Below, piece after piece: positions 32,389 through 45,603 of a DNA stretch of 57,898 nt (position 1 is its first letter; each line of letters starts with the position of its first letter). Position numbers and translations under genes: made by a program. The notes below the pieces were generated by a model. That model was not told where the DNA came from. It worked only from the letters and a program-made list of their open reading frames with translations, and ran no database searches. The DNA is from a virus (taxonomy: Duplodnaviria > Caudoviricetes), in the IMG/VR virus record IMGVR_UViG_3300033273_000437, positions 1-57,898 of that record; one strand, 5' to 3'.

Positions 32389-32791
32389 GCGTCAAATCCT
32401 GGCCGCGCAGGCTCTTGCTGCTGGTTTTACTTGGCGTGATGCAGCTAAACGGGCAAAGTGCTCGACCGAAGGGATTCGGGCTTGGAAACAGCTTGAAGAA
32501 TTCAATAACGCGATCTGGGGTTATCAGCAGGAAATCTTTCACCGCTCCTTTGGAGTGACTTCAGAAGCGTTGCCTGACGCTATCCGAAAGCTGAGGGAGA
32601 TTATCGATACTGAGGATCCTGACGTTGGAGTCAACGTTAAAGTTCAGGCAATCAAGATCTTGATCGATTCCGCTCACAAACAGTATGAAGCGCGGACGAT
32701 TGAACGTCGCCTAGAACAGCTGGAAGCAAATGCCCAACGCGAAGCTCTTATCCCGGTTAGAGAGGTTAGAGAAATTACAGAAGCAGCGTGA
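32363..32791 (+). CDS. terS: Terminase small subunit
   Basis: HTH (LNERQILAAQ.LAAG...AAKRA...W) overlapping the large subunit start. Confidence 0.75.
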   Translation: MERPKELNERQILAAQALAAGFTWRDAAKRAKCSTEGIRAWKQLEEFNNAIWGYQQEIFHRSFGVTSEALPDAIRKLREIIDTEDPDVGVNVKVQAIKILIDSAHKQYEARTIERRLEQLEANAQREALIPVREVREITEAA

Positions 32792-34142
32792 GAAGGAGGC
32801 TGCTAATCAACGTCTCACCAGCACGGGTGTTGGATTTAAGCCTAAGTTTCCAACAGCAGATAACTGGAAAGACTTTGCGCCTCTGACCTGGATTCGGACA
32901 TCAGGCAGCGTCAAACCTTTTCAGCCCTTTGATATTCAGAAGAAGTTAATAGAATCGATATGTTCTCACCAGTACACGATCGTCCTCAAAAGCCGTCAGG
33001 TCGGCGCATCTGAGACGGTCTGCTCCTATCTGCTGTGCAGGGCACTCACAGAGCCGGGTTTCGCTGCTGTTGTCTTCTCCAAGACAGCTACTGACTCAGG
33101 AGCATTAGGTAAACGGATCCGAGCCCAGGCCGCCAGCATCGAGAACTCAGGCATCGAGTTCACAACCGAGTCCAACAGTGAACTGTCGTTCAAGGGTCTC
33201 GGGACGATCTACTTCCTCCCTGCTACTCCCCGAGCCGCCCGTGGTATCCCTTCTGTTTCCGTTGTGGTGCTCGATGAAGCCGCTTTCCTGGACGGAGCAG
33301 ACGAGATCTACACCGCAGCACAGCCGACGATGGCAACGCTCGGAGAGAAGGCCAAGCTCATACTTCTGTCCACCCCGAATGGGATGGGCAATATGTTCGC
33401 CAACCTCTGGCACGGAGAAGACGACGGATGGAACCGCTTTCGCATTCATTACTCAGATATTCCGATCTATGCGGCGGATCCTGATTGGGCGCAGAAGACT
33501 AAGGACAAGGCAAAGCTCACGGAGCGTTCTTGGAGGCAGGAGTATGAGATGGACTTCGTCGCCTCCGATGCCCAGGTCTTCCCCCCGGAATTGGTAGAGA
33601 AAGCCTGCCATGGAAACTGCATCGAGTCCGGTCTGATCAACCGGGACTACATCATGGCGATCGACCCAGCTGGTGGTGGCGATGATTATTGGTGTTCAGT
33701 TGTCTTAGACATAACGACTACGCCTTACAGGGTCGTCAACATGTTCCGCGTCAGATACAAGTCTTCCGACTGGTGTATCAAACAGATTATTGAGCAGGCT
33801 GAGAACTTCAGCCCCTCGAAGGTGATCGTTGAAAAGAACGGTGTGGGAGCTGTCGTATCTGAGATTCTTTCCAAGGCCCTGGCCAAATACATGGTCGAGC
33901 CTTACAACACCAACCGTCCTAACAAAATCTCAAATACAGACCGTATTACTTATTTCCTGGAGCGTGAAGAGCTGCTCCTGCCTAGAGATCCCTTCTATCA
34001 AGAGCTTTTGATGTTCCGCCAACTCCAGACAGGTGATCGCCAGGCAGGGGATGGCGCTCATGATGATTCCGTGATGGCACTTGCTCTCGCACTCTCAGTA
34101 GTTGCTACAACTCCAACGACTGATTGGTTGGATCTCATCTAA
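32730..34142 (+). CDS. terL: Terminase large subunit
   Basis: KSRQVGAS (Walker A), VLDEAAF (Walker B), STPNG, RQEY, IDPA, HDDSVMALALA. Confidence 0.93.
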   Translation: MPNAKLLSRLERLEKLQKQREKEAANQRLTSTGVGFKPKFPTADNWKDFAPLTWIRTSGSVKPFQPFDIQKKLIESICSHQYTIVLKSRQVGASETVCSYLLCRALTEPGFAAVVFSKTATDSGALGKRIRAQAASIENSGIEFTTESNSELSFKGLGTIYFLPATPRAARGIPSVSVVVLDEAAFLDGADEIYTAAQPTMATLGEKAKLILLSTPNGMGNMFANLWHGEDDGWNRFRIHYSDIPIYAADPDWAQKTKDKAKLTERSWRQEYEMDFVASDAQVFPPELVEKACHGNCIESGLINRDYIMAIDPAGGGDDYWCSVVLDITTTPYRVVNMFRVRYKSSDWCIKQIIEQAENFSPSKVIVEKNGVGAVVSEILSKALAKYMVEPYNTNRPNKISNTDRITYFLEREELLLPRDPFYQELLMFRQLQTGDRQAGDGAHDDSVMALALALSVVATTPTTDWLDLI

Positions 34143-34400: not shown

Positions 34401-36197
34401 TTGCCGGAAACTTCGGAAACTCCTGAATTGAAAATGGACTCTGATATCCGTGCTGATGGTGTTCTGGTTAACGCCATCTCAGGCCTTGGCACAAAGAAGG
34501 ATAAAAGCGAGTATTACAACCTGCGTAACCCTCGCTTGCTAGGCGAGGCCGAGCTTGAGGCTCTGTATTACGACCCTCTTTGTCGTCGTCTAGTCGACAT
34601 CTATTCAGAAGCTGCTGTTACTGAAAAGCCGACCATCAAACTTGGTGAGGAAACTGAAGATTACGACGGCATCATTAAAGCTTTTGAAAACTACCTGGAG
34701 GAAATTGACTTTTACTTCTACATCGAAGAAACGCTCAAACTACAGCGAATCTATGGAGGAGCTGCACTATTTCTGGTCCTGGATGACGGGCTTGAGCCTA
34801 GTGAGCCTGTTATTCCTGAGCGTGTTCGGGGCATTGCTGACCTCGTCCCGCTCTCCCGACGAGAAATTGTTCCCAACGATTACAACTACCTCAACTACAG
34901 GAACCCCGAGCTTTACAGAATCTCCACCAGCAAAAGTGTTCAACAGGAGAACGACCTCAACTATCTGCTCGTCCACTCCAGTCGAGTACTGCGAATTGAC
35001 GGACTATTTCTCCCCTGGCGGCAACGCCTTGTAAATGAAGGCTGGGGACTTTCTTATCTCCAACCGTTCTTCGACGTATGGAAGCGGTATCGCGGAGCCA
35101 CTGATGGCATGGCCACGATGCTCAACGAGATGGATTTATTTGTCCACAAAATTCCTGGGCTCGCTAGTAAGGTCACAGCGGGCAACGAGAAGGCTCTCAA
35201 GACACGTCTCGAAGCCAATGCACTTGCTAGGTCGTTATATGGCGGGATGGCACTGGACACTGAGGAAGAAGTCTCATTTGCGTCTCGTTCTTTGGGTGGA
35301 GCCCAGGACATCTTTGATCGCTTGGTAGACGATCTGGTCGCAGCTGCCGACATGCCCAAGACGTTGCTCTTTGGAACTTCTCCTGCAGGTGGCCTTTCCG
35401 AGTCTGGTAAATACGAGGACAAAGCCTGGGCAGCCTCTGTAGAGCGTTATCAAACTCACTCTCTTCGTCGTGGTCTGAATCAGTTCTTCCAGCTGATCCT
35501 GTCCATGCCTCAAGGACCAACCCAAGGCAACATCCCTGATGAGTGGAGCGTCTACTTCCCGCCCTACTTCTCTGAGTCAGACAGCGACAAGGCAGAGCTT
35601 CGTAAGTCTGTAGCTGATACAGACAAGCTTTACGTCGACATGGGAGTTCTCACACCCCTTGAGATCCGTAAAGCTCGTTTCTCTGGCACTGAGTACAGCA
35701 TTGAAACGGTTCTTCAGGAGGAGGAAGAAGAGCGTCTCCAACTCAAGGCTCAATTAGAGCAGGAGTCGATGATTCAGGGCTACATCGGACAGCAAGCTGC
35801 ACTGGAGCAAGCTCAGCAACCCGTTGAAGAACCCACCCCTGAGCCAACTGAAGTAACTGATGCAGAGGATATCGTTCATATGAACGGTCTTCCCCTTGCA
35901 CTGGGTAAAAGCAACGGACTATTCCGGGTTGGACATCTTCTACATGCAGACGGTCAGCGTAATGATGCTGAGCAGGAAGTTCTTGTCGGAAATCGTTTCA
36001 ATGACAGGAAGATTTATCGCAGCCATTATGTTGAAGACGGCATAATTAAGTCAGGACCACTGCTTTTGGGGTTCTACTCCTCTCGTTCCGCAAATAAGGC
36101 TTTTCAGACTTTCGCTAACGGGAAACAAGTCGGTGGGATTGAACAGCTTCAGGAAGCCGATATCGAACATCTGAAAACCTCGTTCGACTACCCGTGA
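34401..36197 (+). CDS. Portal protein (DUF1073-like) with C-terminal extension
   Basis: RIYGGA, VHSSRVL, WGLS, AADMPKTLLFGTSP.G. Confidence 0.85.
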   Translation: MPETSETPELKMDSDIRADGVLVNAISGLGTKKDKSEYYNLRNPRLLGEAELEALYYDPLCRRLVDIYSEAAVTEKPTIKLGEETEDYDGIIKAFENYLEEIDFYFYIEETLKLQRIYGGAALFLVLDDGLEPSEPVIPERVRGIADLVPLSRREIVPNDYNYLNYRNPELYRISTSKSVQQENDLNYLLVHSSRVLRIDGLFLPWRQRLVNEGWGLSYLQPFFDVWKRYRGATDGMATMLNEMDLFVHKIPGLASKVTAGNEKALKTRLEANALARSLYGGMALDTEEEVSFASRSLGGAQDIFDRLVDDLVAAADMPKTLLFGTSPAGGLSESGKYEDKAWAASVERYQTHSLRRGLNQFFQLILSMPQGPTQGNIPDEWSVYFPPYFSESDSDKAELRKSVADTDKLYVDMGVLTPLEIRKARFSGTEYSIETVLQEEEEERLQLKAQLEQESMIQGYIGQQAALEQAQQPVEEPTPEPTEVTDAEDIVHMNGLPLALGKSNGLFRVGHLLHADGQRNDAEQEVLVGNRFNDRKIYRSHYVEDGIIKSGPLLLGFYSSRSANKAFQTFANGKQVGGIEQLQEADIEHLKTSFDYP

Positions 36198-39022
36198 CTA
36201 AGCGATCCGAAGAAAAAGACCTTTACTTAGCCGCTCTGCGAGGTGACGCTAAAGCCCAGCGTGCCTGTACTGAACGAGGCAAGGCGTGCGGTGGACGTTG
36301 TATCCCCAAGCATTGGAACTGCCGCATCAAAGGGGAGGGAGATACACCTCCCACACGCGGCAATGCTGTTCAGCTCTCTGCTGAGCAGAAAGCAAAAATT
36401 CGGAAAGCTCGTCAACAACGACGTATCCGAAGCGGCTTAAAGGTAGCAGGAACGATCGCTGGGGTTGCAGGAGCCGCTGCTGGTGCAGCCGCACTTGCAC
36501 GAAAAAATCCGCAGGCCATGCGTCGAGCTGCTTCCAAGGCAGGTTTAGGCGCGAACTTCGCGGGTATGGTTTCCAACATCCCTGGGCCTGTAGGTTCTGC
36601 AGCGGCTGTTGCGAACTTGGGACTCGGGGCCTTTCAAGCTGGTGCTACGGCGGGAGCAAGTCTTGGTTCTAATCGCCGGGGTGTTGCTCGTCTACGACAA
36701 CTGAAAACATCAATCGCAGCTAGAGAGAAGGTGATTCGACGCACCGAAGCTCGTGTCGCGGATCTCAAAGGCACAAGAAATTCCTTTGAGGTCGCTAAGA
36801 CTCAGCTTTTAGGTCGAATGGGAGATTCCGGATCTAAAGCTCAACAACGAACTCTTAAAAGTCTTACTTCAGCTATCAACAGGAAGAATGGCGAAATAGC
36901 TACTGCTCAAGCCAAACTCTCAGCATTGATTCGACGTAATGCAAGTCTTACGCGTGGCATGAGAAAGATTGAAGGCCTGTTAGGTGGTCAATACAACACA
37001 GCTGAAAAGATCTACAAGAGTGTAGAGCAAACAAACCAAAGATTTAGAGCTGGCCGTCGTCAAACTAGTGCGATTCGCCCAAAAGGGCGTAGAGGACCTA
37101 AACCTGACCGACGCTCTTGGCAGGAACGCTTCGGGATGGACGAGGCCGAGCGTGAGGACAAGAAGTGCGGCAACTCTGGTATCCCGGACAACACCAAATG
37201 CACAAAGAAGAACACCGCACGCACGATCGCCAAGGCAGCAGCAGGCGCTGCTCTGGTTGTAGGCGGTGCAGCTGCTTTGAGGAGCCGTCGCCGGGTCGGA
37301 AGTAAATTTCGCCAGACCGGGTTGACGCCTTACCAAAAGGAACAGCTCAAGAAGATGCGAGCTAAAGGCACAGGTAAGTACGGCGCTCGTGGATGGAGAA
37401 AGACTGGCCGAAGTTTCCGCCCTGATATTGAGGCGATTCAGGGGGACGCTGAAGGAAAAAAGTTCAGTAAGACGGTGACCAACCCCAAGACGGGTCGAAA
37501 ACGCACCATCAAATACGGAGCTAAGGGGTACAGCATTGCCCCTGGTACCAAGAAAGGAGACCGGTATTGCGCTCGCAGCTTTGGGGATATGAAGTCCCAC
37601 GGGAAGGACTGCTCTGGCAAGGATCGCAACACGCCACTGTGTCTATCTAGGGCTAAGTGGAAGTGTTCCGGTAAGTCATCCCGTAAAGATGCAGGAGAGA
37701 AGCGCCGGGGAAAGCCCTGCGGAGCTAGTTACATCTCCAAGTCCAAAGAGTGCCGTATCCAAAAGGGGTCAGGATGGAGTAAAGTGGCTGCCGTAGCGGG
37801 TATTGCTGCAGTAGCAGCAGGAGGTTATGCCTTGTCCCAAAGAAATCCCGACAGGGACCGAAAACCCAGGTTGTCTCCAGCCGAACGGAAAGCAGCTCGA
37901 TTAGCTCGTCAGGACCGAATGTCCGAAGAGCAGGCCAGGAGGATTACTAACGAGGCCATTAAGGATGGAAAGGTGTGGGATGTTCAGGAGAAGATAAATC
38001 AGCGGCGTAAAGCTCAGATTGATGCACAGTGCGGAGGTGGCCTGGGAAAGATTCAAGCCCCAGCTAAGTTCGACGCGATGGTTCGCCAGCCGCGTTGTCA
38101 AGTTGGGGAAGGAGCTTATGGCACTTATTTTGTTCACACTTCCGGTAAATACGGAGTTAAGGTTTTCCGCAACGGTGATGAGGACGATGTCGAAAAGGAG
38201 TTTGACCTTCTAGATCGCGCTCGATCTGCTGGTGTCAATGTCCCCCGACCCTTAGCTCAAAACGCTGTATTAGACGAGGACGGGTATACGAAGTCTCAAA
38301 CGTTAGTCCTTGAACACATGAGAGGTTACAAGGAGGCGGCGAAACTGTACCCCAGTGGTGGAGATAACTTAAGCAAAGCACCTCTAATTGTTCAGGTTAA
38401 AGCCCTTAGGGAGTTCAGAAAGCTCAATGTAGAGGGTTTAGCGCACGGCGATATTCATGGTGGCAACATTCTTGTCAATCCTAGTTCCAAGAAGGTGGCA
38501 CTAATTGATTTTGGATACGCCACAGAAATTGATGATGTAACGCACCCACAGCACGGAAGAAGTGGTGTGGAAACATTGATGGATGATCTGCATAACGTAA
38601 GGCGTTTTGTAGGTGCTAACACCGAATTTTTGGAAGAAAAATCTCAGCCTATTCTGCAGAACATTAGAAAGAATGCTGAGAACTACCACCGTGACTGGGA
38701 TAAGTTTGAGGTATCTGTCAAACGATATTACGATTTTGTAGAAGCTGAGCTTCTTTACGACGAACGTAAGCCAAGGTCTAGGTTTGTAAGAAGTGCTGAT
38801 CAATTACGCATCCCTGATCTAACACGACGCATTCTTACTGCTAATAGAGATTCTCAGCAGAGGCGGCTGATGGTTCAACTTATGAACGAGATGCCAAGTA
38901 GGGCAGAGATCATGGCTAAAAACATTGGTGTTAAGAAACAGCGTTTATTCCTGGCTCTCAAGCCTGAAAGAGACCAATTAGCAGCACGGATTAAGGCGCA
39001 GCCATTTGGCACCCCTCTCTAA
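36194..39022 (+). CDS. Modular head-associated protein: three Cys modules, Gly/Ala helices, YCARS domain, C-terminal protein-kinase-fold domain
   Basis: CGGRCIP, CGNSGIP, CGASYIS modules; YCARS...WKC; GEGAYG, VKVF, HGDIHGGN, DFG. Confidence 0.8.
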   Translation: MTKRSEEKDLYLAALRGDAKAQRACTERGKACGGRCIPKHWNCRIKGEGDTPPTRGNAVQLSAEQKAKIRKARQQRRIRSGLKVAGTIAGVAGAAAGAAALARKNPQAMRRAASKAGLGANFAGMVSNIPGPVGSAAAVANLGLGAFQAGATAGASLGSNRRGVARLRQLKTSIAAREKVIRRTEARVADLKGTRNSFEVAKTQLLGRMGDSGSKAQQRTLKSLTSAINRKNGEIATAQAKLSALIRRNASLTRGMRKIEGLLGGQYNTAEKIYKSVEQTNQRFRAGRRQTSAIRPKGRRGPKPDRRSWQERFGMDEAEREDKKCGNSGIPDNTKCTKKNTARTIAKAAAGAALVVGGAAALRSRRRVGSKFRQTGLTPYQKEQLKKMRAKGTGKYGARGWRKTGRSFRPDIEAIQGDAEGKKFSKTVTNPKTGRKRTIKYGAKGYSIAPGTKKGDRYCARSFGDMKSHGKDCSGKDRNTPLCLSRAKWKCSGKSSRKDAGEKRRGKPCGASYISKSKECRIQKGSGWSKVAAVAGIAAVAAGGYALSQRNPDRDRKPRLSPAERKAARLARQDRMSEEQARRITNEAIKDGKVWDVQEKINQRRKAQIDAQCGGGLGKIQAPAKFDAMVRQPRCQVGEGAYGTYFVHTSGKYGVKVFRNGDEDDVEKEFDLLDRARSAGVNVPRPLAQNAVLDEDGYTKSQTLVLEHMRGYKEAAKLYPSGGDNLSKAPLIVQVKALREFRKLNVEGLAHGDIHGGNILVNPSSKKVALIDFGYATEIDDVTHPQHGRSGVETLMDDLHNVRRFVGANTEFLEEKSQPILQNIRKNAENYHRDWDKFEVSVKRYYDFVEAELLYDERKPRSRFVRSADQLRIPDLTRRILTANRDSQQRRLMVQLMNEMPSRAEIMAKNIGVKKQRLFLALKPERDQLAARIKAQPFGTPL

Positions 39023-39032
39023 TACTTCATAG

Positions 39033-39893
39033 ATGGAAGAACTCATTGAGGAATACAATGCTGCCCTGAAGAACCAAGAGCAGCAGACAATTGATATTGT
39101 TAATAAATCTCTAGACCGAGCCTTCAATCGTCTTCTTCGCCGTACCTATTCCCAGATACGAAGCGGTCAATTTCAGACTGCAGAGAGAAACGCTCGGACT
39201 TTGGAGCTGATTCCTCCGCTTCTGCCTGATCGTTCAGACGAATACTTACTTGCGTTTCGACGCCTGTTATCTCGGTCAACAACTTTTGGGTTAGATCTAG
39301 CTGCACAGCTATCGAAGTCTGTAACAAGTTCTCAAGTCGCTGTAACCATCCCAGTAGAAGCAGTAACAGCAGCAGCGAGACAAGCGAGAGGATACCTAGA
39401 GCGACATGGACGAACATTTGCAACTACGTCTGCAGAAGTGTTAGCGCAGGGAATCGCTGAAGGACGTCCCACTGACGAGATTACGCAGGATCTCAAACGG
39501 CGTCTGAACGTCACTAAATCCCGTGCTGAAGTCATTGTAAGAACCGAATCACTGCGGGCTCACAATGAGGCCTCCCGTAATTACTACACTCAAAACGGTA
39601 TTGATCTTGTGATGTATTTCGCCACATCTGATGATCGATCATGCCCCTATTGCACAGCCCATGCAGGCAACGTTTTCAAGAGAAATGCAATTACTGTACC
39701 CCGTCATCCTCGCTGCCGGTGTTATCTCGCTCCTTACAGTGACAATGTATTTGACATCGATCCAGAATATGACGTGATGAGGAAAAAGCACCGTCAAGAA
39801 GTTCTGAGTTACGCTAGGTCTAAAGGCGTGGATTTAAGTTACGGTCCTGCCTCGTTTGAAGAATTAGCCCCCACCCCGACGAGGGAGACATGA
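39033..39893 (+). CDS. MuF / SPP1 gp7-like minor head protein
   Basis: RAEVIVRTE, DDRSCPYC, PRHPRCRC. Confidence 0.9.
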   Translation: MEELIEEYNAALKNQEQQTIDIVNKSLDRAFNRLLRRTYSQIRSGQFQTAERNARTLELIPPLLPDRSDEYLLAFRRLLSRSTTFGLDLAAQLSKSVTSSQVAVTIPVEAVTAAARQARGYLERHGRTFATTSAEVLAQGIAEGRPTDEITQDLKRRLNVTKSRAEVIVRTESLRAHNEASRNYYTQNGIDLVMYFATSDDRSCPYCTAHAGNVFKRNAITVPRHPRCRCYLAPYSDNVFDIDPEYDVMRKKHRQEVLSYARSKGVDLSYGPASFEELAPTPTRET

Positions 39894-40648
39894 GTAAAAA
39901 GCCTGGCTTGTACGCCAACATTCACGCTAAACGCAAGCGCGGTGAGAAAATGCGTAAGCCTGGTGAGGAGGGTGCTCCCTCCGCACAGGACTTCAAGGAT
40001 GCAGCTAAGACGGCCAAGAAAAAGAAGGGAGCCAAGCGCGAGGATCCTGGTCGCAAGATGTACGACAAGGATAGCTGCAAGATGTGCGACGGAGGCAAAA
40101 AGCCTTGTCGCTGTGGCAAAGCAGATATGGGCCGCAAGGGTCCTTACGCTGATGGCTGTGGATACAACAAGGATTCTGTCGCTGCGGAGTTCAACAGCAT
40201 TCTGACCAACGACGCCGAGCGCTCCGACAAGCCCTGTGGTAATTCCTACATTCCTCAACACGCTAAGTGCCATCACGGCAGTATCCGTGGCCGTGCAGGA
40301 CAGGGTGCAAAACTAGGCTCGAAGATTGGCGCTGGTGTGGGCGCTGTCCAGGGAGCAGCTCTTGGTTCGATTGCTGGTCCTGGCGGCGCTCTTGCTGGTG
40401 CTGGACTTGGTGCAGTTGGTGGTGCAGTTGGTGGCGCTCTGCAAGGTGGATTTATTGGTGGTGTTGTTGGCGCAGCCGAAAAAGGCGGATCTAGAAACAA
40501 ACGTTACCAGTCAAGAGCAAAAAAGATCAAACAAAACTATAAAAAGGCCTATCACACTGGTAAAGCAAAAGGCCTCTCACGCAAAAAGATGCAGGAGATT
40601 GACCAGAAATATGCAATGCAATTCGCCCGTGCCGCCGATCGTCGCTAA
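39890..40648 (+). CDS. Basic head-associated protein with Cys module and glycine zipper
   Basis: GLYANIHAKRKR N-terminus, RSDKPCGNSYIPQHAKC, long GxxxG zipper. Confidence 0.75.
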   Translation: MSKKPGLYANIHAKRKRGEKMRKPGEEGAPSAQDFKDAAKTAKKKKGAKREDPGRKMYDKDSCKMCDGGKKPCRCGKADMGRKGPYADGCGYNKDSVAAEFNSILTNDAERSDKPCGNSYIPQHAKCHHGSIRGRAGQGAKLGSKIGAGVGAVQGAALGSIAGPGGALAGAGLGAVGGAVGGALQGGFIGGVVGAAEKGGSRNKRYQSRAKKIKQNYKKAYHTGKAKGLSRKKMQEIDQKYAMQFARAADRR

Positions 40649-40650
40649 TT

Positions 40651-41733
40651 ATGTATTCTCCTGATGTGTTTGATGACAGCATTGACCAATTTAATGCTGC
40701 GATTATCAATAACACCGAGCGTGCGGACAAGCCCTGCGGTAACTCCTACATCCCTCAAAACGCTAAGTGCAGCAAGGGAGCTGGACAACCTGCAAAGAAG
40801 GCTGGAGCTAATAGCCCTGAAAAATGGGGCGGAGAGTCAGTAAACGCAAAAGGGGGTTACGCAAAGTTCCTCAAGAAGAAAGGCATCGACCCAAGCAAGT
40901 TGGGAGCAAATAGCCCTAAGGCAGAGAAGCTTGCACAGGAGTATTACAAAACCCCTGCAGGTAAGGCTGAGTTACAGAAAAGTGGTGAAGCTCAGTATGC
41001 AGCACTCTCTGACAAGCAAAAAGAGAAACTTATTCGCCAGCAGGCTAAGCCCATCCTGAGAAACACATCGCGTCAGACAATTAAACAGGCCCTTGAACGT
41101 AACAAGGGCAAAACAAGTGTTGAACACCGCACTATGGAAAAGGCAGCGAAGCGCGAATTGTTTAACCGCAATGTCCGTAACGTGGCTGCCATGGGTTTGT
41201 ACGGTGTAGCCGCCGGTTCGCTTCTTAGTTCTGCGCTTAAAAAACGTCGCCGCTTTGATGCCGCTCGACTCGACAGAAAACTGAATTGTGGTACGGGTAG
41301 TAAACAGTGTGGTAATGCGTGTATTCCTAAAAGAAATAAGTGTCGAGCATCTTGGAATAAGCCGGTAAAGGCTGCTGCCTTCACTGCTGGTGCAGCTAGT
41401 TTGGGTTTGGTAGGCACAGCTTTCCTTCATAGGCGCTCAGGCATGCGGCAGGCAGCTCGCCAAGTTATTGAGCCAGTAACACAAGCAGGTTTTGCGGCTG
41501 GCAATTTGGCAAGGGGTAATCAGGCAGGGGCCATGAAAAACATGGCAAATGTGATTAGCACAAGCAAAGGTGCAGGTAAAAATCTCAAGTTCATTGCCAG
41601 GGGTTATGGAAGAGATCTTAAGTCCGCTCTTGAGCTTGGTAAAAACCGCTATTTCAAGGCTCGTCACCATAAAAGAGCCAAAGGTGGTCGAGTCCCTGGA
41701 CTGATTTACGACGGAGATTCAGCGTGCAGCTAA
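40651..41733 (+). CDS. Basic head-associated protein with two Cys modules
   Basis: RADKPCGNSYIPQNAKC and CGTGSKQCGNACIPKRNKC; two hydrophobic helices. Confidence 0.75.
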   Translation: MYSPDVFDDSIDQFNAAIINNTERADKPCGNSYIPQNAKCSKGAGQPAKKAGANSPEKWGGESVNAKGGYAKFLKKKGIDPSKLGANSPKAEKLAQEYYKTPAGKAELQKSGEAQYAALSDKQKEKLIRQQAKPILRNTSRQTIKQALERNKGKTSVEHRTMEKAAKRELFNRNVRNVAAMGLYGVAAGSLLSSALKKRRRFDAARLDRKLNCGTGSKQCGNACIPKRNKCRASWNKPVKAAAFTAGAASLGLVGTAFLHRRSGMRQAARQVIEPVTQAGFAAGNLARGNQAGAMKNMANVISTSKGAGKNLKFIARGYGRDLKSALELGKNRYFKARHHKRAKGGRVPGLIYDGDSACS

Positions 41734-42224
41734 GCACATCACGCACTGACAAGAAGTGCGGTGCTTCCTACATCCCTAACACCGCTAAGTGCTCCAAAGG
41801 CTCCGGCGCTGGCACTGCTGTTAAAGCAGTTGCTGCCGCTGGGGTCATTGCTGGTGGAGCAGCTGCACTGAAACGGCGCTCGCCGGGCACTGTTACCAGG
41901 ATCAAGATGACGCCCACCCTTAGCCTGAGAGCTGAACGGGCAACGGCAGCAGGAATGCGCCGCCATAAGGCAGCTGTCATTAGAGGCAAGCGCCGTCACA
42001 ACGTGGCAGTGAAGGCCGCGCTATCTAAAGGTCAACGTCGCCATAAGGCTGCGATCCTCAAAGCACGACGTAAGTACGAGCCAGGTTTCATGAAGAAGAA
42101 GAGCAAGCGTCCCCTGGGCAGTTATCGCTTGGGTTCTTTTTACAAAGACGGCACTCCTAAAACCAAGAGCGTTCGTGATCGCGTAGCCAAGATCATGGAC
42201 GCATATAGGAAGAAGGGTTACTGA
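41724..42224 (+). CDS. Basic protein with Cys module and Ala/Gly helix
   Basis: RTDKKCGASYIPNTAKC, AVAAAGVIAGGAAAL, three G-x-RRH-x-x-A repeats. Confidence 0.7.
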   Translation: MQLSTSRTDKKCGASYIPNTAKCSKGSGAGTAVKAVAAAGVIAGGAAALKRRSPGTVTRIKMTPTLSLRAERATAAGMRRHKAAVIRGKRRHNVAVKAALSKGQRRHKAAILKARRKYEPGFMKKKSKRPLGSYRLGSFYKDGTPKTKSVRDRVAKIMDAYRKKGY

Positions 42225-42343: not shown

Positions 42344-42802
42344 GTGACTTGCATCAGCACACATGCTTCCCACCGGGGGGCAAAGGGTGAGCACCTGTTT
42401 GAGGGTTATTTCCTTGACCAGGGAATCTTCATATCTGCACCTAAGCACGATCTACACCGCATCGATTACGTCGTGGAGTGGAAAGAGCAATTGGTGCGCG
42501 TCAATGTGAAGACTCTGCACTGGGACCCTAAAAACAAGGTTTTCAAAGCAGAAACAAGGACCAGTTGTCCTGGAGGCAACAGGCCATACACCCCTGACGA
42601 GATTGATTACTTCGGTGTCGTCTCATTGGAACACGATCTTATTTGGATGGTTCCATTGTCCGCAGTTAAGGGTACTTCCCTTAGTTGGCACCCGCCAGAA
42701 AAGAATCACAGGAAACGTTATGACTCCTTCAACTGGGATCCTTACCTCATAAATAAAGGGTCAACAACAGTTTTTGATACTAATAAGGTTAAACTTAGTT
42801 AG
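42344..42802 (+). CDS. PD-(D/E)XK endonuclease (PDDEXK_5-like, free-standing)
   Basis: RGAKGE, IDYVV, RVNVKT, Y...EIDYFGV. Confidence 0.75.
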   Translation: MTCISTHASHRGAKGEHLFEGYFLDQGIFISAPKHDLHRIDYVVEWKEQLVRVNVKTLHWDPKNKVFKAETRTSCPGGNRPYTPDEIDYFGVVSLEHDLIWMVPLSAVKGTSLSWHPPEKNHRKRYDSFNWDPYLINKGSTTVFDTNKVKLS

Positions 42803-42811
42803 TATCAGGGT

Positions 42812-44053
42812 ATGGAGACTGTCTCTCGCTACGATTACGGCCAGGTAACTAAATCCGAAATGACGGATGAAGGTTATCTAAAGGTCTGGTGTAAAGCCGC
42901 CCGTGTTGGCACTCAGCTTTATACACGGGGTGATGGAACGCAAGTTCGTGAGTATCGCCCTGAGGAAGAAGTAGCGAAGCCTGAGTCTCTAGCTTCCTTC
43001 GGTATGAAAGCAGTCACCATGGGCCATCCGCCCGTCCTGCTTGATTCCGGGAACACTAAAGTGCATCAGATCGGACATGCTGGTTCGCAGGTTCGTTATA
43101 ACGATGGATTCGTAGAAGTTGCTCTTCTCATTACTGATAAGAGCGCTATCGAACGTATCCAACGAGGTGATGCACAGGAAGTCAGTGCGGGATACCGCGT
43201 TGACTTTGATCCAACCCCTGGTGTTTCACCACTAGGTGTAAGTTACGACGGCGTCCAACGAAACATCCGCGTTAATCACATCGCTGTTGTTCCTAAAGGT
43301 CGTGCCGGTCGTGACGTTCGCCTAATCCTCGATTCATGTGATCGCAACGACGCGATTGCATGGACTGAAACCCCGTCGAATTCGCCCGTTATTTCCATGG
43401 CACGAATCACCCTCGACGGCCTGGATCTTGAACTTCCCGCAGAAACTGCAGGCGCGGTCCAATCCTTCGCTAAGGAGGCTGAGCGTGCCAAGGCTGACCT
43501 CCAGAGCAAGCTGGATTCTCAGGAAGAACAGATTCAAGCCGTAGTTATCGAGAACGAAGAAACTCTTGGCCGTCTTGATGCGGCTCTGGAGCGTATCGAA
43601 GAACTAGAAAAGCAAATCGCCGACTCTGCTGAAGCTGCAGAGAAGCGCGATGACGCTGCAGAAATCAATGAGGCCGTGAACGCACGCCTCGCCACCCTCG
43701 ACAAGTTCGCTCCAATCCTTCCGGAGGAGTACAAGTTTGATGGCGAGGATGAGCGCGGCATCATGGCTCTCGCATACGAAAACGTCTTTGAGAAGGCTCC
43801 TCGCGAAGACGCGACCAACGACTACCTCCTGGGTGTTCTGGACGGCGTTCTTGCTGCTATGGAAGACGTCGAAGAAGACGAAGAGGAAGTCCACCAGGAC
43901 TCCGAATTCCAGCCTGAGGAAGATGGCTCCAACGTCGCCGAGGTGCGTGCTGCTGTAGCTGCCATTTCTGGTGCCGAGAAGGTCGACAGCGCTTCCTCCT
44001 ACCGCGAGCACCTGCTGAACGGTTGGAAGTCCAATCTCACTGCTCACGTTTGA
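42812..44053 (+). CDS. DUF2213 prohead protease / scaffold protein
   Basis: EGYL, ARVG, EYRPEEEV, TMGHP, EVSAGY, NHIAVV..GRAG; acidic coiled-coil tail. Confidence 0.88.
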   Translation: METVSRYDYGQVTKSEMTDEGYLKVWCKAARVGTQLYTRGDGTQVREYRPEEEVAKPESLASFGMKAVTMGHPPVLLDSGNTKVHQIGHAGSQVRYNDGFVEVALLITDKSAIERIQRGDAQEVSAGYRVDFDPTPGVSPLGVSYDGVQRNIRVNHIAVVPKGRAGRDVRLILDSCDRNDAIAWTETPSNSPVISMARITLDGLDLELPAETAGAVQSFAKEAERAKADLQSKLDSQEEQIQAVVIENEETLGRLDAALERIEELEKQIADSAEAAEKRDDAAEINEAVNARLATLDKFAPILPEEYKFDGEDERGIMALAYENVFEKAPREDATNDYLLGVLDGVLAAMEDVEEDEEEVHQDSEFQPEEDGSNVAEVRAAVAAISGAEKVDSASSYREHLLNGWKSNLTAHV

Positions 44054-44068
44054 TAGGAGCACTAAGTA

Positions 44069-44680
44069 ATGGCTATTTCTTTTACCGACACCAACGTCTC
44101 TAACCCGGCTGGTGCCCAAGGCTCCTACCCCCTGGAGCTGACGGCTGGCCACGAAGGTTTGATTGCCGACCTGCAGGCTTATGTCTCCCGGTCGTACACC
44201 AATGAGTCCAGCGCCGTTATCCCTTACGGCCACGCTGTGATCATCGACAGCTCTGCTACTTCCGGTCTGGGTGCCAAGCTCCCTGCCGGTGCATCTGCTA
44301 CCGACGTTCTGGGCATCGCTGTTGACAGCAATGTCTTCGAGAACGTCTCCGGTACCTACACCCCAACCCCCACCAACAAGACTTCGGATGGCCGCATCGG
44401 CTACCCCGAGAAGCAAATGGTGAACGTCCTCAGCAAGGGCGTGATCTGGGTGTATGCCGTCGAAACCGTGGCTCTGGGCGATGCCGTTCGTCTGTTCCAC
44501 ACCGATTCCGCATCTGCATCTTCCAACAAGGGCTACAAAGGCCGTTTTGGTAAGACCGCCGAGGCCGGTAAGACCTTTGAAGTGACTGCTGGCGCTCGCT
44601 GGCTGAGCGCTGCTTCCGCTGGAAACATTGCTCTCCTGGAGATCGACATCCCGACTCTCAGCGTTTCCGCTGACACTTGA
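44069..44680 (+). CDS. Head decoration / cement protein
   Basis: Between scaffold and capsid; VNVLSKGVIWV motif; AGGAG RBS. Confidence 0.75.
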   Translation: MAISFTDTNVSNPAGAQGSYPLELTAGHEGLIADLQAYVSRSYTNESSAVIPYGHAVIIDSSATSGLGAKLPAGASATDVLGIAVDSNVFENVSGTYTPTPTNKTSDGRIGYPEKQMVNVLSKGVIWVYAVETVALGDAVRLFHTDSASASSNKGYKGRFGKTAEAGKTFEVTAGARWLSAASAGNIALLEIDIPTLSVSADT

Positions 44681-44694
44681 TAGGAGATCAACCA

Positions 44695-45603
44695 ATGTCT
44701 GAAATTCGCAATGACGACGTCGGTCTGTTTCTGGCTCGTGAGCTAGAGCAGGTCCTGGCCCGCACTTTTGAGGTCCAGTACGCCGACATCAAGTACTCCT
44801 CTGTGCTTCCTATCTCTACCGAGGTGGGTCCTGGCGCAGATAGCTTCACCTATCGCATCTTCGATGCACAGGGTCAGATGAAGCTGATTGCCGACAAGGC
44901 CAGCGATCTGCCCCGCGCTGACGTGCTGCGGAAGGAAGTCACCCATCAGGTTCGCAGCCTGGGTGCCTCCTTCGCTTACACCATCCAGGAAACCCGTGCC
45001 GCCGCCATGGTGCCCGGCATGAACCTGGAGCAACGCCGCGCTAACGCTGTGCGTCGTGCTTATGAGGAGAAAGTCCAGTCCATCGCCTACTTCGGTGACA
45101 CTGGCGTCTCCATGGACGGCTTCTTCAACAACGCCAACGTTGACAAGACCGTTCCCAGCAAGTGGTTCGATGATGCAACCATCACCACTGACGAGATGCT
45201 GGAGATCCTGAACGAGGCTCCCACCTCGATCGTCCAGGGCTCCAACATGAAGGAGACCCCGAACACGATGCTCGTCCCCTACGACGTGTATCGCATCATC
45301 TCCACCACTGCTCGTAGCACCACCTCCGACACCACTGTCCTGGAGTTCTTCCTGCGTACCAACCCGTTCATCCGCTCCATCGAGCCGATCAACGAGCTGG
45401 AGGCATCTAAGTCTTCTCTGAGCAAGGACCGGATCATCTGCTACGACCGCTCCCCCGAGAAGCTCCAACTGCACATCCCCCGCACCCTGGAGTTCCTTCC
45501 CCCTGTCCGCAACAACCTGGAATTCAGCGTTGCTGCTCACGCCCGTATCGGCGGTGTCGCTCTGTACTACCCCAAGAGCGTCCTGTACGTCGAGAAGGCC
45601 TGA
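44695..45603 (+). CDS. Major capsid protein (DUF2184-like)
   Basis: DLPRAD, YTIQE, AYFGD..G.FNN, GGVALYYP; AGGAG RBS before ATG 44695; strong codon bias. Confidence 0.9.
   Translation: MSEIRNDDVGLFLARELEQVLARTFEVQYADIKYSSVLPISTEVGPGADSFTYRIFDAQGQMKLIADKASDLPRADVLRKEVTHQVRSLGASFAYTIQETRAAAMVPGMNLEQRRANAVRRAYEEKVQSIAYFGDTGVSMDGFFNNANVDKTVPSKWFDDATITTDEMLEILNEAPTSIVQGSNMKETPNTMLVPYDVYRIISTTARSTTSDTTVLEFFLRTNPFIRSIEPINELEASKSSLSKDRIICYDRSPEKLQLHIPRTLEFLPPVRNNLEFSVAAHARIGGVALYYPKSVLYVEKA

Follow-up and report, generated by a model that had tools for sequence, protein, structure and literature searches.

What a short cysteine motif is doing at the front of many otherwise dissimilar phage proteins is the question raised by the head-gene region of IMGVR_UViG_3300033273_000437, a linear IMG/VR record of a tailed phage (Caudoviricetes) with a CheckV completeness of 82%, analysed here over its whole stretch of 57,898 bases, which we refer to as the window. 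The element, which we call the Cys module, follows the pattern CGxxxI[PS]xxxxC. A preliminary description of the locus had reported seven copies in four open reading frames (ORFs) around the gene for the MuF minor head protein, and a six-frame regular-expression scan returned exactly seven matches in the whole window, all of them in these four ORFs and each where it had been placed. The ORFs, designated A_942, B_252, C_360 and D_166 according to their length in amino acids (aa), lie between the genes for the portal and the prohead protease, on both sides of MuF. When the degenerate DNA pattern of the module was searched for in 100 dinucleotide-preserving shuffles, a mean of 0.34 matches was obtained, with a maximum of 2, against the 7 of the window, a result that rules out chance or low complexity as the origin of the module. 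Our view, held at about even probability and drawn from the sequences, is that the four ORFs would encode effector cassettes that are loaded into the head and co-ejected with the DNA, on the theme of polyvalent and MuF-linked proteins, and that the module would be the constant boundary preceding each cargo. The four ORFs and their modules are the following (pI, isoelectric point):

36194-39022, + strand: A_942, three cassettes with three modules, pI 10.5, net charge +100
36266-36322, + strand: module 1, four-Cys type, C-x6-CGGRCIPKHWNC
37166-37201, + strand: module 2, CGNSGIPDNTKC, after MDEAEREDKK
37718-37753, + strand: module 3, CGASYISKSKEC, in which Ser replaces Pro
39890-40648, + strand: B_252, pI 10.1, net charge +33, one module, a long glycine zipper and an N-terminal PGLYANIHAKRKRG motif
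40235-40270, + strand: module 4, CGNSYIPQHAKC, in B_252
40651-41733, + strand: C_360, two cassettes, pI 10.3, net charge +44
40735-40770, + strand: module 5, CGNSYIPQNAKC, in C_360, without a hydrophobic run after it
41287-41343, + strand: module 6, four-Cys type, C-x6-CGNACIPKRNKC, in C_360
41724-42224, + strand: D_166, a single cassette, pI 11.6, net charge +38, with the module 11 residues from the start
41757-41792, + strand: module 7, CGASYIPNTAKC, in D_166

The first Cys of the CG core is encoded at 36287, 37166, 37718, 40235, 40735, 41308 and 41757, and the two four-Cys copies carry an additional Cys seven residues upstream (at 36266 and 41287) together with a Cys at +4; the four-Cys type is placed at the N-terminus of the portal-adjacent protein in relatives too. 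The preliminary description had each module shortly after an RxD motif, which holds for five of the seven copies (R at -5 and D at -3, in ERED, ERSD, ERAD and SRTD, with an RLD further upstream in the second C_360 copy) and fails for the first and third copies of A_942, which follow TERGKA and EKRRGKP. Ten codons before module 2 of A_942 there is an in-frame ATG (MDEAEREDKKCG; 37136-37165), with an AGGA about 10 bases upstream of it by eye, and this internal Met could be the relic of a gene fusion, namely a former start codon, or an internal translation start. A lipoprotein signal at the module Cys was ruled out by eye, as neither a hydrophobic leader nor a lipobox is present.

The expectation that the module would prove to be repeated and widespread was borne out in several sequence collections. 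All 78 C_360 homologues retrieved from an index of 5.8 billion proteins contain it, in one to three copies each, in a search that is biased towards homologues, and a DNA pattern for K-x-CG-x3-IP-x3-KC matched at least 119 stretches in IMG/VR which, among the matches listed (a scope that holds for all counts of loci and of locus-derived ORFs below), divide into 73 of the module family, 39 that encode a 126-aa protein and 7 without an in-frame module. The loci gave 214 module ORFs, 159 after near-duplicates (at least 85% identity over at least 80%) were dropped, with 216 module instances. A profile made from 150 instances (the window's 7 and 143 of 169 available, two doubtful and 24 surplus ones being left out) retrieved 781 proteins at E<=1e-3, of which 179 reached E<=1e-10, from 1.84 billion cluster representatives, and 781 is a lower bound because single-copy proteins mostly miss significance with a profile of 44 positions. 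The 150 proteins among the matches listed are between 100 and 3278 aa long, and 145 of the 146 new ones carry one to eight modules by regular expression. In 185,579 species genomes the module pattern was found in 7 stretches, 5 with true modules, all on contigs of metagenome-assembled genomes (MAGs): three from Thermosynechococcus, one from a Cyanobacteriota bin and one from a Crocinitomicaceae bin. A cyanobacterial host range is, judging from such names, plausible for much of the group. The Thermosynechococcus contigs (L131, L132 and L135, from one MAG, a hot-spring cyanobacterium bin; contigs of 43 and 33 kb) carry DnaJ and LRAT cargo and have a methyltransferase nearby. The 126-aa "CGTMSIPSVTKCCLC" family (L011, L018-L020, L038 and 34 further IMG/VR loci), which has K-x-CGTMSIPSVTKCCLC at residue 32 and with it the CG..IP....C core, was set aside: none of its 39 loci has a head-gene match, the one member checked against PHROG gave no match, and the protein is probably unrelated to the module family.

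The consensus of the family reads R(-5) x [D/G/N] [K/L] [K/P] C G x [S/G] x I [P/S/A] x x x K C [R/T/S] K G, and an Ala/Gly-rich stretch follows. Conservation in the 216 related modules extends into the leader, with R at -5 in 46% and D, G or N at -3 in 92%, and the Lys-rich flanks are also kept. Stand-alone module genes start with M-x-LTPxxxRxD immediately before the module, and in 138 of 212 called proteins the first module Cys falls in the first 60 residues. No model in Pfam, NCBIfam or PHROG covers the module, and none of its sequence strings turned up in the literature searched; a family model for it is warranted whatever its function might be.

The loop of the module would be closed by its two invariant Cys, and the remaining cysteines covary. 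Among 634 distinct modules, Cys at +4 is present in 193, every one of which also has the upstream Cys (at -7 in 153 and at -6 in 29), whereas only 4 of the 441 modules without Cys at +4 have one upstream. With about 30% of copies carrying them together, the two additional cysteines evidently act as a pair; a second disulfide would fit it equally as well as a zinc site. In the same 634 modules His at +4 and His at +9 (with the invariant Cys at 0 and 11) occur together 58 times against 18.7 expected, an association that may come from lineage structure. For the four-Cys unit of C_360, AlphaFold2 (26-row alignment) predicts a beta hairpin across the CG turn, with a predicted local distance difference test (pLDDT) of about 84, followed by four helices, at a mean of 68.9. 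A fold search of the PDB with this C-terminal unit gave nothing below E = 1, A_942 had no sequence matches in the PDB, and D_166 had no usable match in the ESM Atlas. Complex prediction for MuF (38 rows) with the module (150 rows) scored 0.00 twice, in runs without controls, and counts neither way.

The stretch that follows the modules in the window is as characteristic as the modules themselves:

36443-36499, + strand: uncharged Ala/Gly helix VAGTIAGVAGAAAGAAALA, then a basic tract; best 17-residue window with a mean Kyte-Doolittle hydropathy of 1.58
37235-37279, + strand: 15-residue Ala/Gly run AAAGAALVVGGAAAL, then RSRRR (by eye from the translation)
37784-37840, + strand: uncharged Ala/Gly helix VAAVAGIAAVAAGGYALSQ; best 17-residue window with a mean Kyte-Doolittle hydropathy of 1.93
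40325-40477, + strand: Gly/Ala zipper of B_252, uncharged, 51 residues
41371-41430, + strand: uncharged helix AAAFTAGAASLGLVGTAFLH, the first of four predicted helices of C_360
41817-41870, + strand: Ala/Gly helix of D_166, aa 32-49 (AlphaFold2 helix 33-47, low confidence)

An Ala/Gly helix had been described after most modules, and an uncharged run of at least 17 residues is found within 70 aa of four of the seven (hydropathy means of 1.5-1.9); two further copies have shorter runs, of 15 Ala/Gly residues interrupted by one Lys, and the first C_360 copy has none. In the family as a whole, an uncharged helix follows 103 of 216 modules, compared to 56 of 318 random windows of the same proteins, and its flanks are strongly basic (mean charge of +4.4 before and +2.1 after). 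The region of B_252 at aa 135-243 has PHROG matches to large virion proteins; B_252 gave no match at E<=0.1 to the Pfam glycine zipper (PF13441) or its relatives, and a precomputed PF13441 match is present in 4 of the 78 C_360 homologues. A cassette consists of a short leader, (L)TPxxxRxD[K/L][K/P], then the 12-residue loop CGxxxI[P/S]xxxxC, often an Ala/Gly helix with a basic tract, and lastly a variable cargo.

Two cargo domains could be placed in the window, both in A_942:

37451-37687, + strand: YCARS domain, A_942 aa 420-498 (tblastn)
38102-38611, + strand: APH/Kdo/RIO-like kinase domain, A_942 aa 637-806 (Pfam, NCBIfam and motifs)

Among the cargo named in the preliminary description, the kinase and the YCARS domain are real, and the coiled coil is limited to weak SMC-like matches, so that A_942 holds one recognised enzyme, the YCARS domain and a coiled-coil-like region. 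The kinase, which is the third unit of the protein, exceeds the Pfam cut-offs for APH (47.7 bits; cut-off 23.2), Kdo (35.8; 21.3) and RIO1 (29.4; 22), and has GEGAYG at aa 638, the Lys of VKV at 656, HGDIHGGN at 751 and DFG at 772, so that all catalytic motifs are present. The YCARS domain is Cys-rich, has no Pfam model match, and in other marine phages stands alone as a hypothetical gene (71-75% identity in S-TIM5-like cyanomyoviruses and Roseobacter phage CRP-212); genes of Vibrio phages are 44-55% identical to it. In B_252, C_360 and D_166 no domain was recognised by Pfam or NCBIfam scans; the cargo of the window would further include helical domains. The N-terminal PGLYANIHAKRKRGEK motif of B_252 (aa 1-45; 39890-40024) matches phrog_16028 (E 2.5e-19), and 123 phage records, most of them of T7-like cyanophages, pelagiphages and roseophages, have it as a small hypothetical gene of its own.

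Outside the window, Pfam scans of relatives bear out the proposal that the cargo context of the module varies widely and is not invariant. Relatives of up to 3278 aa combine two to eight modules with varied Pfam domains. In 35 long module proteins of the 150 listed (25 of 36 families listed), we found DnaJ in 7, LRAT in 4, a DUF676 esterase in 4, and ART-PolyVal, InPase, ADPrib_exo_Tox and APH in 2 each, along with PolyA_pol, NUDIX, LPD1 (1), Pkinase, PI3_PI4_kinase, ABC1, Tle3, alpha/beta hydrolases, thioesterases and lipases (Lipase_3); other relatives add LRAT, HipA-like and DUF676 domains, DnaJ with LRAT, and LPD1 in L113. A peptidase family was found neither in the window proteins by Pfam nor among the 25 of 36 families listed for these 35 relatives. 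One and the same cargo may have its own ORF or be part of a longer protein: of 21 kinase units, 8 are N-terminal and 13 internal, and many relatives have the kinase as an ORF of its own just upstream of the protease. Cassettes are found as separate genes, as tandem fusions, or fused behind portal-MuF.

This last arrangement is the most direct connection between the motif and a head component. Five longer MuF relatives were found, four with an intein-like insertion and one in which portal and MuF are fused and a four-Cys module-like motif follows MuF, and a follow-up search gave 13 MuF-fusion proteins, three of which (P0229-P0231; 1313, 1224 and 1241 aa) consist of portal, MuF, the motif, a Gly/Ala/Lys-rich linker and a cargo. 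All three match the regular expression, with the upstream Cys at -7, and two of the three match the profile, weakly (16.9 and 16.0 bits). In their alignment, identity stays high for about 40-60 residues beyond the motif and is then lost where the different cargo follows (DUF3626, ADP-ribosyltransferase and weak GNAT-like), which makes the module-like motif the last constant element before the variable cargo. Since both portal and MuF belong to the head, these fusions make motif and cargo physically part of a head component. In the opposite direction, none of 224 module proteins matched MuF or portal by phmmer. Related MuF fusions carry names from Lyngbya and Brasilonema. The insertion of about 280 residues in the four MuF relatives P0225-P0228 (564-569 aa) interrupts the conserved HPRC|RCY motif; a precomputed match to the intein family PF14890 is present in three of the four, and the insertion looks, from its sequence, like an intein in a minor head protein.

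The module genes belong to a compact + strand head module, which runs TerL, portal, A_942, MuF, B_252, C_360, D_166, endonuclease, protease, cement and capsid:

32730-34142, + strand: large terminase
34401-36197, + strand: portal, 598 aa, net charge -34 (PF06381, E 1.5e-57; phrog_146)
39033-39893, + strand: MuF minor head protein, stand-alone, 286 aa (PF04233, E 1.2e-13; phrog_115)
42344-42802, + strand: PD-(D/E)XK endonuclease gene within the head module (PF11645, E 8e-11)
42812-44053, + strand: DUF2213 prohead protease with an acidic C-terminal half, net charge -38 (PF09979, E 1.4e-40; phrog_530)
44069-45603, + strand: cement protein and major capsid protein (PF22758, PF09950)

These genes are tightly packed, the portal stop codon overlapping the GTG start of A_942 (GTGA) and that of MuF the start of B_252 (ATGA). 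Neck genes and a tape measure protein of 1576 aa are encoded further downstream, so the phage has a long tail. The net charges of the four module proteins sum to +215, in contrast to -34 for the portal and -38 for the protease/scaffold. The preliminary description had also proposed a check of linkage to MuF and DUF2213, and relatives of the window's head proteins were indeed identified by phmmer in 62 of the 73 family loci (MuF in 45, portal in 35, protease in 32), arranged as TerL, portal, module genes, MuF, module genes, protease, cement and capsid; the 11 loci without a head-gene match are mostly short or from other phage types.

More independent evidence of head linkage than that of the clade loci is provided by three larger phages. 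In one of 154 kb, three module genes, one of which bears LPD1 and DUF6496, are directly upstream of a MuF/phrog_220 gene annotated as "minor head protein and DNA pilot" and of Neck1. A complete phage of 118 kb has 17 modules by profile and at least 15 module genes listed within a 35-kb stretch, with the core Cys at residue 11-17 in 11 of the 15 listed; five of its module genes are directly downstream of the large terminase. The cargo in this phage includes LRAT (twice) and RNase T. In a complete phage of 119 kb there is a 1749-aa protein with five modules, and a module-bearing ORF of 1209 aa is found about 3.5 kb from a MuF-containing ORF. One module protein of the 118-kb phage G004 (L137:9366-10370) has a weak eCIS_core match (E 1.5e-4; 22.3 bits vs a cut-off of 22). 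The eCIS_core domain is otherwise known from the cargo of extracellular contractile injection systems.

The preliminary description knew of no account of this architecture, which stands for the module itself and falls for the general class, since polyvalent proteins and MuF-linked toxins are known. In the available text on polyvalent proteins, Iyer et al. (2017, PMC5512222) inferred that these enter the host along with the DNA and are processed by metallopeptidases embedded in them, and P1 DdrB serves as a precedent for the processing of packaged members. As there, unrelated effector domains would be strung together, kinases are among the cargo, and the genes lie beside head and packaging genes, which is where those of the window are; the polyvalent hallmarks ART-PolyVal, InPase and LPD1 are present in module-bearing relatives, while ART-PolyVal, InPase and LPD domains were not found at E<=0.1 by Pfam in the four window proteins. 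Unlike what that text describes, a Cys module precedes each cargo here, frequently together with an Ala/Gly helix and a basic stretch, many cassettes form small genes of their own, and in place of an embedded metallopeptidase (MPTase) there is no peptidase among the families listed. We found no description of the module, and the word "cysteine" is absent from the main text of PMC5512222, whose supplements (131 domains) could hold one. The polymorphic toxins fused to MuF in temperate phages (Jamet et al. 2017, PMC5576092) are similar, as far as the available text of that paper goes, in the linkage of variable toxin-like domains to MuF, and in our three fusions the part behind the motif is swapped while the part before it is conserved; a constant N-terminal and variable C-terminal part of this kind was found only in these fusion relatives, P0229-P0231, whereas the MuF protein of the window stands alone and the cargo is on neighbouring genes.

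Three other comparisons can be made. The ejection (pilot) proteins of short-tailed phages (T7 gp14-16, P22 gp7/16/20 and those of N4), which are internal to the virion, share, in the accounts available, membrane-active helical segments, which are putative here, and genes in the structural region; they differ in that the tail here is long, homology is lacking, and the units are modular with enzymatic cargo. The internal proteins of T4 and Alt have an N-terminal capsid targeting sequence that is cut by the prohead protease, and are injected with the DNA. They too are basic and have a short N-terminal signal (a candidate one in our case) and prohead loading (which the genes alone suggest here), but no sequence relation was found, and our candidate signal is a Cys-clamped loop that also occurs internally. 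In the pre-toxin boundary modules of polymorphic toxin systems, which Zhang et al. reportedly described in 2012, a short conserved element likewise marks where the constant part for delivery ends and the variable C-terminal cargo begins; their sequence and context are different, and the element studied here heads stand-alone genes and repeats within one protein. Alt and IPI are mentioned in the available text of PMC5512222.

With these elements in hand, the observation made in the preliminary description is confirmed and its interpretation is partly supported; metal binding, a role as packaging or sorting tag, cutting in the prohead and ejection are treated here as hypotheses and not as findings. 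If our preferred reading is correct, the module proteins would be loaded into the procapsid and would leave with the DNA, their extreme positive charge would suit packing onto DNA or onto the acidic portal and scaffold, some of the cargo would act early on the host, and the Ala/Gly helices might insert into a membrane or associate with it. The DUF2213 protease would be, by inference only, a candidate processing enzyme or docking partner of the cassettes. Several points weigh against this picture of head-loaded effector cassettes. The linkage seen in 62 of 73 loci is largely a matter of common descent in one clade and carries no independent weight; several module genes of the 118-kb phage are away from recognised head genes, one of them near a DNA ligase, and the 8 kb examined around the modules on the Thermosynechococcus contigs contained no recognised head gene. 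Because 10 of the 13 MuF fusions lack the module, it is not obligatory for MuF-linked cargo. Uncharged helices follow only 103 of 216 modules, and in this long-tailed phage the tape measure protein already offers channel formation. The AlphaFold2 model of D_166 (mean pLDDT 57, below 50 in the module) is uninformative on the fold of the two-Cys type. Cultured phages (50,697 records) have no module unit detectable by megablast with the head module or tblastn with C_360, and tblastn of B_252 and A_942 against them matched the PGLYANIHAKRKRG motif, YCARS and, weakly, a RIO-like kinase, and never the module; the closest isolate by portal, the Synechococcus siphovirus S-CBS4 (37% identity), has MuF, and modules were not found in it.

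What the module would do for such cassettes is most likely one of two jobs, a docking handle in the procapsid or a recognition site at which the leader or the upstream unit is cut off, which appear about equally likely from the data at hand. Both would agree with its place at the very N-terminus of many separate genes, and the release role is slightly favoured because the module is kept at the MuF/cargo junction and residues are conserved on both sides of the Cys. It is a tentative possibility that leader and module form a universal, transferable head address, through which a protein would be docked, cut free and delivered into the next host; if so, a large phage group, probably cyanobacterial and marine, would swap effectors at will, using a natural and portable tag for protein delivery. 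In the portal-MuF fusions, however, a packaging tag would be redundant, since the cargo is already tethered. Somewhat more doubtful is that the module is mainly a processing or release site, with the prohead protease or self-cleavage acting before the CG and with packaging due to charge or to other parts of the proteins, in which case the cut would take the short leader off single cassettes, part tandem cassettes from each other and release the cargo from portal-MuF. Conservation on both sides of the putative cut, with R(-5), D/G/N(-3) in 92%, K/L(-2), K/P(-1) and the invariant C and G, argues for it, as do the retention of the module at a junction where a tag is redundant, its presence before every internal unit, the need for another release route where no peptidase is found among the 25 of 36 families listed for 35 proteins, and the DdrB precedent in the available text of PMC5512222. 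Yet a cleavage specificity of the DUF2213 protease was not found in the literature searched, known prohead proteases have no need of a Cys-clamped hairpin, the fusions are only about 55-63% diverged and their retention of the motif could be recent history, and the internal Met before module 2 suggests a gene fusion or an internal start instead of cutting.

Two further explanations were considered. It is unlikely that the four ORFs encode unpackaged, late, membrane-anchored proteins of the infected cell, concerned with envelope remodelling, exclusion or lysis timing and merely placed within the head operon, with the Cys loop as a periplasmic, disulfide-closed N-terminal stub. The uncharged Ala/Gly helices of 17-51 residues with mean hydropathies of 1.5-1.9 would suit such proteins, lipid- and envelope-related cargo is common (LRAT, DUF676, Lipase_3, Tle3, PI3_PI4_kinase, the Kdo-type kinase), and disulfides, formed outside the cytoplasm, would agree with the covarying Cys pairs. 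However, the helices are basic on both flanks, unlike a signal anchor, and about half of the modules have none; successive modules of tandem proteins could not all be periplasmic, cytoplasmic-type cargo such as DnaJ, ART, NUDIX, RNase T and PolyA_pol is frequent, and in three proteins the module is covalently fused to portal-MuF. That these are structural internal head proteins which neutralise or organise the DNA, with the module as a nucleic-acid zinc knuckle and the enzymatic cargo as a secondary feature, is in our opinion very unlikely, in spite of the net charge of +215, of the conserved Lys-rich flanks and of the C4- or C2H2-like ligand sets that the 193 four-Cys modules and the excess of paired His would make up. 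The 441 modules without a second Cys pair, many of them also without His, speak against a knuckle, the C-x6-C-x3-C-x6-C spacing is not known from such knuckles, the association of the two His may, as said, be one of lineage, and the cargo repertoire is effector-like and not of a DNA-packing kind.

How proteins are selected for head loading and injection in tailed phages is known for a few model phages only. Here one short motif heads hundreds of different cargo proteins, which include nucleases, kinases and lipid-active enzymes as well as J-domains and ADP-ribosyltransferases. It is shared by a large group of uncultured phages and no fewer than three further large phage lineages, and its neighbours are mostly genes for portal, MuF or terminase. 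If the motif is a loading or release signal, it would define a new, searchable class of candidate injected effectors in environmental viromes, explain a block of hypothetical genes in many head modules, and provide a testable tag for bringing foreign proteins into capsids.

A smaller observation concerns the PD-(D/E)XK endonuclease gene, whose position between the last cassette gene and the prohead protease is kept in the nearest relatives of the window (L004, L005, L030, L043, L055, L120 and L122).

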